Below the pieces are notes generated by a model. The model searched no databases. It worked only from the letters and a program-made list of their open reading frames with translations, and had not been told where the DNA came from. The position numbers and the translations under genes are program-made. Shown here piece by piece: positions 24,813 to 28,601 of a stretch of DNA of 64,000 bases (its first letter is position 1; every line of letters begins with the position of its first letter). This stretch comes from Escherichia coli (lineage in GTDB: Bacteria > Pseudomonadota > Gammaproteobacteria > Enterobacterales > Enterobacteriaceae): the NCBI RefSeq assembly GCF_013122565.1, contig NZ_CP053258.1. One strand, 5' to 3'.

Positions 24813-26825
24813 TTAAGAGGCCAGCGTACCTTGCGGCGGTGCTTGCTCAAGTTGCGAAAGCGAGCAGTACAGCCGCCAGACAATTGCCGCCAGCTCACGG
24901 GCGGCAGGTTGATGATGACGGGCAAGGCTGTCGCAAATCCGCTGTAATTCTTCAAGTGTGGCCGCCAGTGATTTTTGCTGAACGCCACGCTCACTCATCA
25001 CTCCCCGCAACAGTGAAATACAGTTATCCCGTACTCGCGATAACGGATCGGAACGCGATTCCCAGTCGCGTAATTGCCAGACAACATGAGAACAGTTCAG
25101 CAGCACTACACCCCAGCGTAATAACCAACGGCGAGCCAGCGCATCCTGGCTGTTACTCAACTGACTGACGTGATGATAAGTGAGCGATTCAAATTCGCTT
25201 TCACTCAGTGTTGGATGGCGGCTTAGTTGATCGACAAAATCCCGGCGCAGCGCGCGAATATGGCGGCGGCTTTTGCGAGCATCCGATCCTGGACGCAGAA
25301 TGGCGAACGCTAACCACGCCAACGCGACGCCAACGATTTTTGCCAGATTATCGTTAAGAAAATCAGCAAAATCATACACCGGGGGATTAGTGACAGCGAT
25401 AAAAGAACCCATAAAAACAATCAGTTGCCCCCACAATGCGGCAAATTTGGGCATCTGCAATTTAAGAAGCTGCATTGTCGCCAGCAGTGGAAAGAGAAAC
25501 AGTAAAAATTGCCACAGATCGCTAATCTGGACCATCAGACCAAATTTGACCACAAAGCTGAATAGCGAAAGTAACACCAGCGTGCGCATCAGCAGTGACA
25601 ACGACTTAAACGGTGCTGCGACGGCGGAGTAGAGTACGCAGCTAATTGCTGCCAGCGTTAATGCATTGGCACCGGCATCCCATTGCGAAGCAACACTCCA
25701 TGCGCCAATCATCATCAACGTACAAAATGTACGCAGCCCGCTCCACATAGCTTCGGCGTTATCGGTATGACGAGCCAGGCCGGATATCCGTGGGAGTCTG
25801 GTATGATCATCTACACCGCTTTGCAGACGATGTAATTCCTGACTACTTTGCAGATAAAGGTGGCAAAAATAACGTAGTCGCTGCCAGAAGGCGACGTGCC
25901 GGTAGTCGCCGACGTTGGTCGGGCGTAGCGGGGCGATAATACGTGCGACGGTGTAAACATCTGTTTGCGAACTGGCGAGCGCCGTCAGCAACTGTTCGAG
26001 AATTTCTCGTGTGGCACCTGGCGGTGAGGGCCAGTTGAGCAACATACGTCGCAGGCTGGAGATGACACTGGTCATACGTAATTGCTGGTGGAGCAGCGCA
26101 TTAAGGCGCGCGTTTTGCTGGCGAAAACGATAGTGGCTCCAGAAAGCCTGGATACGCAGCAAATTCATGGTCAGTATCTGCCCAATCACCCCTTCATGTG
26201 CTGCACGAATGGCATCGGTTGTTTCAGGCTGCCAGAGTAAACTGGCATGTTCCAGTAATCGGGCGTGCATGTTTTTCAATGCGGTTAAAAGGGCTGTAGC
26301 ATCGGAACTGCTAGGCAGGATCATCATCATCATGCCGCCGCACAAAATACCGACAATCACCTCGCAAACGCGCGCCTGAGCGATATCCCACAGCTGGCTG
26401 GCCTCAGTAATATTAACCATCGGAAAGGCGATGATGGCAGCCGTGTAGCCCGCCAGTTGAAATGCATACGCGACGTTATTCGTGAAGTGCGCACAGGCCC
26501 AGGTACAAAAGCCAAGCCACGCCGACATGCTCAATAGAAAAAACCACGGCTCATTGAGCGTATGCCCGGCAAGAAGCAGTGCCGCAATGGCTCCCAGTAA
26601 ACTGCCAGCGATGCGTCCGAGGCTTTTGCTGATGACACCGCCAACGGTGGGAAAGCTAACCACTGCAGCCGAGGTCATCGCCCAATAGGGTTCATCCAGA
26701 TTCAAATAATAGGCAACCGTCAGCGCCAGACACATGGCAATGGTATTGCGTAACGCATAACGCCATTGCGCCAGCGTGGCCCTGAACCAGGGCAAATTGC
26801 GCAAGGACCATGACGATGCGTTCAT
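24813..26825 (-). CDS. ydhK: FUSC-family (fusaric-acid-resistance-like) inner membrane efflux protein YdhK
   Basis: ORF track 670 aa; two hydrophobic blocks separated by a soluble domain, AaeB-like; overlaps ydhJ stop by 1 nt. Confidence 0.88.
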
Positions 26826-27682
26826 TATTGACCTACGGCAATGCTACAGGTGGTGCCCGACACCAGCGTGACATCGCCTGGAACTTTATCCAGCGCAAAG
26901 CGGACGGGAACGCGTTGGGCGAGACGAACCCAGGGGACGTTAGGTTTCACATCCGGAATAAGGCTTGAGTCACTTTCAACGCTCTGATCATAAATCGCCC
27001 GACCGATACTGGAAACGTGACCCTGTAACGTTTTGTTATCACTATAGAGGGTAATTTGTGCTGGTGCACCTTCGCGGATATGGCGCAACTTGGTTTCTTC
27101 AAAATAACCAATGACGTAAAACGAGTGGCTGTCGACAAGGGCAAACAGCGGTTTCCCGGTATCAGCGTAATCGCCGATGCGGGTAGTAAGGTTAGTCACC
27201 CATCCACTCACCGGGGCGCGAATTTCCGTTTGCGCCAGTTGCCATTGTGCCTGTTTCAGCGTCGCCTGTGCGGCATCAACACTGGCCTGCATCGCTTTAA
27301 CATTGAGGTTAGCGGTATCGAGTTCTTCGGCAGAAATAAAATTTTGTGAGAGATGACGACGACGATTCGCTTCGTTATTGGCTTTTGCGAGGTCAGATTG
27401 CGCTTTCGCCAGCTGAGCCTGTGCGTTCAGCTCGGCGATCTGAAAGGGCGTTTTATCGATCGTGAGCAGAAGATCCCCCGCGTTAACCAGCTGGTTGTCT
27501 TTTATATTCAGCTCAACAATACGTCCCGACACCTGTGGGGTGATAGAAACCTGTTCTGCGCGTATTTTCCCGTCGCGTGTCCACGGAGATTGCATGTAAT
27601 AATTCCACAGCCACCATCCGGCAAGAACTGCAACTACCGCTACAATGATTGTTGAGAAATACTTAATTGTTTTAATTGACAT
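26825..27682 (-). CDS. ydhJ: HlyD-family membrane fusion protein YdhJ
   Basis: ATG (plus-strand CAT at 27680-27682) gives 285 aa [17 protein letters not shown]...; the ORF-track TTG start at 27724 is an extension; coiled-coil MFP sequence. Confidence 0.85.
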
Positions 27683-27684
27683 AG

Positions 27685-27921
27685 TTACCACGCAATCAGT
27701 ATTGCCATAGCAAGGCAAACGCAAATCGCAAACAGCGATAAATCCATTAACAAGGGATGCCAGATGTCACCGGCGTAGATCCAGCCACGAAGCAGGCGGT
27801 GTACGACAAGCCAGATGACGAATCCAAACGCGAAGGCTTTGAAAAACGGAGGAAAGTAGACGGACGCACCGAACACCAGATCTTGTAAGGGCAATCCTGT
27901 TGCATTGAGCATAAACTTCAC
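27685..27921 (-). CDS. ydhI: DUF1656 small inner membrane protein YdhI
   Basis: ORF track 78 aa; two hydrophobic helices; stop 2 nt upstream of ydhJ start (AaeX-like arrangement). Confidence 0.8.
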
Positions 27922-28093
27922 AAAGTAGATTCCTTTACGACCGAATATATTGCGTTAGATTAATAAATATTCTTTAAGTGCGAAAAATTTACGCGCAATT
28001 TCTGAAAAATATGTCTGACGGTAACCAAATGCAGCAATACATTTGTTTTAGCAATACAATTGCTGCACACTATTCTAAAAGCCGCATAATATC

Positions 28094-28105
28094 TTAGCAA
28101 GCTAA
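28094..28105. promoter_or_regulatory. SlyA-type 12-bp palindrome in slyA-ydhI divergent region
   Basis: Perfect palindrome TTAGCAAGCTAA immediately upstream of the slyA RBS; matches the reported SlyA binding consensus. Confidence 0.7.
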
Positions 28106-28121
28106 TTATAAGGAGATGAAA

Positions 28122-28556
28122 TTGGAATCGCCACTAGGTTCTGATCTGGCACGGTTGGTGCGCATATGGCGTGCTCTGATAGACCATCGCCTGAAACCGC
28201 TGGAGTTAACACAAACCCATTGGGTTACGTTACACAATATCCATCAGTTACCTCCAGACCAGTCGCAAATTCAACTGGCAAAAGCGATTGGCATCGAGCA
28301 GCCATCACTGGTCCGTACTCTGGACCAACTGGAAGAAAAAGGGTTAATTTCGCGTCAAACTTGTGCCAGCGATCGTCGGGCTAAACGTATTAAACTGACG
28401 GAAAAGGCAGAGCCGCTGATCAGCGAAATGGAAGCTGTTATTAACAAAACCCGCGCGGAAATTTTACATGGCATCTCCGCAGAGGAACTGGAACAACTGA
28501 TTACGCTCATCGCAAAACTTGAGCATAATATCATTGAGTTACAGGCCAAAGGGTGA
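28122..28556 (+). CDS. slyA: MarR-family transcriptional regulator SlyA
   Basis: TTG at 28122 is 6 nt after AGGAG (28111-28115), whereas the in-frame ATG at 28116 abuts the RBS; translation (M)[23 protein letters not shown]... 144 aa. Confidence 0.88.
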
Positions 28557-28601
28557 AATGAAGGGGGCGTGTGGTCAGTAACCTGACCACACGCAAACTA
28601 T

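Follow-up and report, generated by a model that had tools for sequence, protein, structure and literature searches.

A probable SlyA operator in the slyA-ydhI intergenic region of Escherichia coli contains the -35 element of a divergent ydhIJ promoter with a mapped start

In enteric bacteria, SlyA and its orthologues (RovA, KvrA) govern virulence, capsule and fimbriae as well as H-NS counter-silencing. The E. coli regulon is limited by how much SlyA is present, and the level that slyA sets for itself is therefore of importance. The region between slyA and the divergently oriented ydhIJK genes raises the question of how a single 12-bp site, lying immediately in front of the slyA ribosome-binding site, is placed relative to the promoters of both transcription units, and how it might serve them. 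The sequence considered here (the window) is a stretch of 64 kb which, across slyA-ydhI, is that of E. coli K-12 (MG1655). Positions 27880-28200 are 100% identical to this strain, and the same stretch was found in 5,423 of 5,426 complete E. coli genomes.

The site, the binding of SlyA, the autoregulation of slyA, the link with ydhIJK and the UUG start codon are all already known. What is new here is the exact anatomy of the region, its conservation and the position of the site relative to mapped transcription starts; the added value is modest and resides in the coincidence of the operator with the -35 element of the mapped distal ydhIJ promoter. According to our main reading, to which we assign a probability of about 0.88, the 12-mer TTAGCAAGCTAA is a functional, primary high-affinity SlyA operator common to slyA and ydhIJK.

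The locus and the 12-bp site

The slyA-ydhI intergenic region comprises 200 bp (27922-28121). The genes bordering it and the elements located directly upstream of slyA are as follows:

24813-27921, minus strand: ydhIJK operon (ydhI 27685-27921, ydhJ 26825-27682, ydhK 24813-26825; RefSeq)
28094-28105: probable SlyA operator TTAGCAAGCTAA, with arms TTAGC (28094-28098) and GCTAA (28101-28105) and centre AA
28111-28115, plus strand: Shine-Dalgarno (SD) sequence AGGAG of slyA
28116-28118, plus strand: in-frame ATG abutting the SD sequence (zero spacer), not a start codon
28122-28556, plus strand: slyA coding sequence, TTG start, 144 aa (RefSeq)

The slyA product was recognized as the SlyA equivalog NF002926 (278.7 bits, with a cutoff of 120; NCBIfam), and chains 3q5f and 3deu of Salmonella SlyA (E ~1e-79) are close matches to it in the PDB, which holds structures of both SlyA and RovA. 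The cognate regulator of the operator is encoded by the adjacent open reading frame. According to RefSeq, slyB is located downstream of slyA in convergent orientation, while the AaeXAB-like operon ydhIJK is divergent; its products resemble the efflux proteins AaeX, AaeA and AaeB, with scores below the equivalog cutoffs (NCBIfam). A regulator gene and a pump operon are thus found in divergent orientation, with an operator overlapping a promoter element of the pump genes. Such a placement of a repressor gene beside a pump operon represents the ancestral MarR arrangement, and the divergent orientation is retained in 79 of the 80 Enterobacteriaceae loci that we compared. The annotated beginning of ydhJ is subject to an ordinary start-codon ambiguity: in RefSeq the gene encodes 285 aa from 27682, and in the mechanically generated list of open reading frames it begins at TTG 27724, overlaps ydhI and encodes 299 aa (26825-27724).

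The plus-strand sequence TTAGCAAGCTAA at 28094-28105 is the sole exact copy within the window, where ~0.007 copies are expected from base composition; approximate matches (up to 2 mismatches) occur in the window at chance frequency. As stated in the first-pass annotation, which had been made from the DNA sequence, the 12-mer ends 5 nt before AGGAG: it is followed by TTATA (28106-28110), AGGAG, ATG (28116), AAA and TTG (28122). The same annotation described it as a perfect 12-bp palindrome, which is incorrect, as its reverse complement, TTAGCTTGCTAA, differs at 2 bases (10 of the 12 positions are self-complementary). It is a 5-bp inverted repeat with fully complementary arms separated by an asymmetric AA, a dyad symmetry that fits a homodimer. 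The term "palindromic" is used loosely for the SlyA site in the literature too.

The site matches the SlyA consensus (TTAGCAAGCTAA; minimal form TTAN6TAA) at 12 of 12 positions. In the Salmonella enterica loci the 12-mer is unchanged and lies equally far from the UUG (-28 to -17), with the same flanking SD sequence, ATG and TTG and the same divergent ydhIJK genes, and it was reportedly on the Salmonella slyA promoter that footprinting was performed. The match is therefore largely circular. The consensus, which later papers credit to Stapleton et al. 2002, had been proposed on the basis of footprints and a limited SELEX experiment with the Salmonella protein (Curran et al. 2017, PMC5797941), and the E. 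coli site is essentially the prototype of this consensus rather than an independent match to it.

Promoters on either side of the site

Transcription starts were taken from SMRT-Cappable-seq data (5'-triphosphate ends) for MG1655 grown in M9 and rich media at 37 C, given in NC_000913.3 coordinates (Supplementary Data 2 of Yan et al. 2018). They originate from one dataset, are accurate to about +/-1 nt and come from a table whose positions are perhaps off by 1; their mapping to the window was verified. The start-site tables of Ettwiller 2016 and Kim 2012 contain no rows for the slyA-ydhI locus. The mapped starts and the promoter hexamers assigned to them are listed below:

28077, plus strand: slyA transcription start (A), with a leader of 45 nt (b1642, TSS 1720869 reverse)
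28065 (28064 if the table is 0-based), minus strand: distal ydhIJ transcription start (b1643/b1644, TSS 1720881 forward)
27951, minus strand: proximal ydhIJ transcription start, located 30 nt ahead of the start codon of ydhI (TSS 1720995 forward)
28043-28048, plus strand: -35-like TTGTTT of PslyA, with a 17-bp spacer, exact in 78/80 loci
28066-28071, plus strand: putative -10-like CACACT of PslyA, assigned by position (position-weight-matrix, predicted start ~28078), exact in 71/80 loci
28095-28100, minus strand: -35 hexamer TTGCTA of the distal ydhIJ promoter, wholly inside the operator, column conservation 1.0
28072-28077, minus strand: -10 hexamer TAGAAT of the distal ydhIJ promoter, exact in 71/80 loci, every variant keeping TAnnnT
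27984-27979 and 27962-27957, minus strand: candidate hexamers TTCGCA and TAATCT of the proximal ydhIJ promoter

Scans with the sigma-70 consensus and with a position-weight-matrix both pointed to the minus strand: the best match in the whole intergenic region is TTGCTA-17-TAGAAT, which scores 12.1 bits (at most 8.6 for the plus strand) and whose predicted start, 28065, is equal to the mapped distal ydhIJ start. The four hexamers of PslyA and the distal ydhIJ promoter are exact in 71-80 of the 80 loci. The two promoters are arranged back-to-back, with the -10 of PslyA (28066-28071, top strand) abutting that of the distal ydhIJ promoter (28072-28077, bottom strand). Considering the known size of the polymerase footprint, they should be mutually exclusive for RNA polymerase.

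Since the slyA start (28077) lies upstream of it, the site resides in the transcribed leader, at +18 to +29 of the slyA transcript, and outside the core slyA promoter. The first-pass annotation had named the reverse order, with transcription beginning downstream of the palindrome, as evidence against its proposal; the mapped start is on the opposite side. In the distal leftward ydhIJ promoter the operator spans -29 to -40, with its centre at about -34.5, and it is for this promoter only that the operator is promoter-proximal (~-35).

Another -10-like hexamer (28085-28090) abuts the left side of the operator; its E. coli K-12 sequence is CATAAT, whereas most other Enterobacteriaceae have a perfect TATAAT there. 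This plus-strand hexamer is an unlikely slyA -10 in E. coli: the implied start (~28097, inside the operator) is absent from the SMRT-Cappable-seq table, and the corresponding -35 is poor. In other species it may form a secondary slyA promoter, which could bear on the difference in autoregulation.

Conservation of the site and of the slyA start codon

We compared 80 Enterobacteriaceae loci from species-representative genomes, including those of Escherichia, Citrobacter, Salmonella, Enterobacter, Klebsiella, Kosakonia and Leclercia. An exact copy of the 12-mer is present in 78, in one case at a position displaced by a 1-bp deletion, and the remaining two loci carry one substitution each. The SD sequence is invariant, a single offset case being due to a 1-bp deletion. 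Over the columns of the site and the SD sequence, identity to E. coli reaches 99.8%, and in the proximal 90 bp as a whole (28032-28121) it amounts to 88%, with 44 invariant columns. The corresponding values are 52% for the third-codon positions of slyA and 40% for the distal intergenic DNA (27922-28031). This profile agrees with the variable segment described from ~95 bp upstream of slyA (Will et al. 2019).

Eight outgroup loci, obtained via RovA homologues, extend the comparison. At the same position, Serratia (locus L084, 1473-1484) carries TTAGCATGCTAA, a true perfect palindrome; at the same offset, Hafnia carries TTAGCACGCTAA, and Yersinia aldovae and Y. pestis carry CTAGCACGCTAA. In these three genera the site is kept at 10-11 of 12 positions; Edwardsiella and Photorhabdus retain 9/12, while in Sodalis and Xenorhabdus it is degenerate. 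The outgroup operators have conserved arms and a variable central dinucleotide (AT, AC). The central AA is specific to the Enterobacteriaceae; read as TT on the minus strand, it gives rise to the TTG of the -35 hexamer TTGCTA. As 79 of the 80 loci keep ydhI, conservation of the 12-mer is not separable into SlyA binding and -35 function among them; the outgroups separate the two partially. Y. pestis retains the site despite the loss of ydhIJK, and in Edwardsiella it is likewise recognisable without these genes.

In Yersinia, RovA is an orthologous protein (4aih family), its gene has a TTG start, and CTAGCACGCTAA occupies the offset of the SlyA operator. The rovA locus differs in that ydhIJK have been lost in Y. 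pestis and Y. pseudotuberculosis. The autoregulatory sites and promoters of rovA are said to lie further upstream.

The TTG at 28122 is located 6 nt past the SD sequence. It had been preferred as the slyA start on the argument that the in-frame ATG at 28116 has no spacer to the SD sequence, and both the observation and the choice are sound. The RefSeq coding sequence (144 aa) begins at this codon; slyA was described as initiating at an unusual UUG, with Kawakami 1999 cited, and its change to AUG raised SlyA more than 5-fold (McVicker et al. 2011). The spacer argument itself was already printed for Klebsiella in a 2024 paper, in which the AUG abuts the SD sequence and the Salmonella start is the conserved UUG two codons downstream. 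Moreover, both site distances given by Curran et al. (2017), 22 and 161 bp, fit only a start codon at 28122.

Natural variants across species agree with this assignment and provide new comparative support for the TTG start. In one Enterobacteriaceae locus (L075) the upstream ATG is replaced by AGG and the TTG is kept; in another (L043) the upstream ATG is no longer in frame owing to a 1-bp deletion, and an ATG stands in the place of the TTG. The upstream ATG is missing in all 8 outgroup loci, and in Serratia (GTG start) and Xenorhabdus an in-frame TAA directly precedes the start codon.

Regulation through the operator and alternative explanations

Binding of SlyA to this region is published. 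Table 3 of Curran et al. (2017, PMC5797941) lists "PslyA TTAGCAAGCTAA, 22 bp upstream of slyA", which is the same sequence without any difference, and the distance corresponds to that between the centre of the site and the TTG (28099.5 vs 28122). In the EMSA of these authors purified E. coli SlyA shifted a biotinylated fragment with a Kd(app) of ~50-100 nM; the fragment (primers TC65/TC66) is exactly 27922-28121, i.e. 200 bp. The slyA promoter DNA has also served as the positive control for SlyA EMSA (McVicker et al. 2011). The gel-shift experiment suggested in the first-pass annotation was therefore already available, with a positive outcome. That SlyA binds at the exact 12-mer inside the 200-bp fragment is suggested by the consensus match and conservation, on which this placement rests.

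The published EMSA and the reported autoregulation also bear out the proposal, previously based on the position of the site, that slyA regulates itself. The sign differs by species, being positive in E. coli and negative in Salmonella. Two independent E. coli reporter studies found that PslyA activity is lower without SlyA and is induced by it; positive autoregulation is documented by reporter data in PMC7417354 and announced in the title of Corbett 2007. Expression from a multicopy plasmid raised the slyA transcript only ~3-fold, from which the authors infer autoregulation (Curran et al. 2017, PMC5797941). With Salmonella components, SlyA repressed in vitro transcription of slyA 5.3-fold and that of ydhI ~19-fold, and salicylate relieved both effects (Will et al. 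2019).

The suspected control of ydhIJK is likewise supported by published expression data. SlyA represses ydhIJK in Salmonella, as revealed by RNA-seq; in Klebsiella, loss of the SlyA orthologue KvrA (gene kvrA) increases YdhJ 45- to >100-fold; and in E. coli, overproduction of SlyA resulted in a 2.2-fold rise in ydhIJK mRNA (Curran et al. 2017, PMC5797941). The direction of the last effect is the reverse of that expected if SlyA simply repressed the distal promoter. One operator with its core promoters is associated with opposite reported outcomes by species, for both ydhIJK and slyA.

Salmonella resembles E. coli closely at the operator and differs from it in several other respects. Its autorepression stands against the autoactivation of E. 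coli, the slyA transcription start that others have used precedes the start codon by 198 nt, as against 45 nt in E. coli, and its distal intergenic DNA is unrelated to that of E. coli. Will et al. (2019) described a site near the -35 of the Salmonella ydhI start with only 75% identity to the consensus, and the sole 9/12 SlyA-like site that we found in Salmonella is at -104 to -93 from the slyA start. The Salmonella ydhI promoter may differ from the distal ydhIJ promoter of E. coli.

The following mechanism may be proposed for the shared operator. A dimer of SlyA, a MarR-family winged-helix protein, would bind the two 5-bp arms TTAGC and GCTAA, and small aromatic carboxylates such as salicylate would release it. 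Because the -35 hexamer TTGCTA lies inside the operator, bound SlyA would be expected to keep RNA polymerase off the distal ydhIJ promoter by -35 occlusion, which fits the strong repression of ydhIJK in Salmonella and Klebsiella. At slyA, bound SlyA would sit just downstream of the initiating polymerase. Since the core promoters are back-to-back and their -10 hexamers abut, one polymerase could not serve both, and the net effect on slyA might have either sign: hindrance would make it negative, as reported for Salmonella, and relief of promoter competition would make it positive, as reported for E. coli.

A useful comparison is provided by marO, the operator region of marRAB, where a MarR-family dimer also acts on a short pseudo-palindrome near its own ribosome-binding site, is released by salicylate and is linked with efflux and resistance. 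Site I of marO reportedly overlaps the -35 and -10 elements, and site II is said to lie just upstream of the marR ribosome-binding site. The two systems differ in operator sequence and in gene order, marRAB being a single operon with no divergent pump, and MarR is a pure autorepressor.

The positive sign in E. coli is the point at which explanations diverge. The operator could act as a promoter-choice switch, in which SlyA removes a strong leftward competitor, the distal ydhIJ promoter, and thereby raises the weak slyA promoter. If true, this would explain how positive autoregulation in E. coli is exerted from a site downstream of the slyA start, and the coincidence of operator and -35 in a back-to-back promoter pair suggests a testable reason why E. 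coli and Salmonella differ in the sign of autoregulation. No statement of such a model was found in the accessible literature, Corbett et al. 2007 being outside that scope; we advance it tentatively and consider it rather improbable. It is possible, though doubtful, that SlyA is a pure autorepressor of slyA which, bound at +18 to +29, only hinders transcription (as a roadblock or by blocking promoter escape), the positive effect in E. coli being indirect and due to upstream sites or other regulators. The location of the operator downstream of the mapped slyA start is in keeping with hindrance, as are the limited ~3-fold rise from the multicopy plasmid and the 5.3-fold autorepression in vitro in Salmonella, whose proximal region is nearly identical (Will et al. 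2019). The induction of PslyA by SlyA in the two E. coli reporter studies, also conveyed by the title of Corbett 2007, argues against it.

Three further explanations were considered. The inverted repeat might act in RNA, as a leader hairpin beside the SD sequence that tunes translation from the weak UUG: it is transcribed (+18 to +29), its arms form a 4-bp UUAG/CUAA stem in the MFE structure, and the leader and SD sequence are nearly invariant. We rejected this reading, which is very unlikely, as the leader folds no better than shuffled sequences (z = +1.23; 181/200 shuffles fold at least as well), the only three Rfam hits are at chance level (19.6-24.2 bits, with cutoffs of 43-50) and none covers the site, and arm changes are uncompensated (CTAGC...GCTAA in Yersinia and Kluyvera); moreover, SlyA is documented to bind this DNA (Curran et al. 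2017, PMC5797941). Equally hard to accept is the idea that the 12-mer is conserved merely as the -35 of the distal ydhIJ promoter, with SlyA binding incidental. The invariant TTGCTA does belong to the best sigma-70 match, with coinciding predicted and observed starts, but conservation covers all 12 positions and not just the six of the hexamer, Y. pestis and Edwardsiella have a recognisable site without ydhIJK, the central bases of the outgroup operators weaken the -35 while the arms persist, and binding and regulation by SlyA are documented. Finally, intergenic DNA often contains short AT-rich dyads, and sequences with up to 2 mismatches are as frequent in the window as chance predicts; a functionless chance repeat is nevertheless scarcely credible for a site with ~0.007 exact matches expected per window, near-invariant (78/80) beside neighbouring DNA of 40% identity, and with published binding. 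The reading of the 12-mer as the primary SlyA operator shared by slyA and ydhIJK is the one that we retain.

Two other SlyA-like sequences and a pair of repeats are present in the intergenic region:

27955-27966: second SlyA-like site, TTAGATTAATAA, of the TTAN6TAA form, 9/12 relative to the reverse-complemented consensus
28048-28059, plus strand: predicted third SlyA-like site, TTAGCAATACAA, 9/12, at -29 to -18 of PslyA
28030-28038 and 28059-28067: perfect 9-bp inverted repeat, TGCAGCAAT and ATTGCTGCA
28033-28045 and 28050-28062: direct repeat, AGCAATACATTTG and AGCAATACAATTG

The sequence TTAGATTAATAA is given as "161 bp upstream of slyA" in Table 3 of Curran et al. (2017, PMC5797941). It overlaps the candidate -10 (TAATCT, 27962-27957) of the proximal ydhIJ promoter, which starts at 27951, and lies in a poorly conserved region. 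The third site belongs to the conserved proximal block, and both repeats are situated in the ultra-conserved -35/-10 region of PslyA. The repeats and TTAGCAATACAA (28030-28067) could provide SlyA with additional sites or be recognized by a different regulator.

At the other end of slyA, the 45-bp gap between the convergent slyA and slyB genes contains a hairpin (28567-28594; GCGUGUGGUCAG-UAAC-CUGACCACACGC) whose 12-bp stem is perfect and whose loop has 4 nt; it folds with -24.3 kcal/mol (z = -5.75). The terminator scan missed this structure because it has no T run; it is probably a bidirectional terminator.
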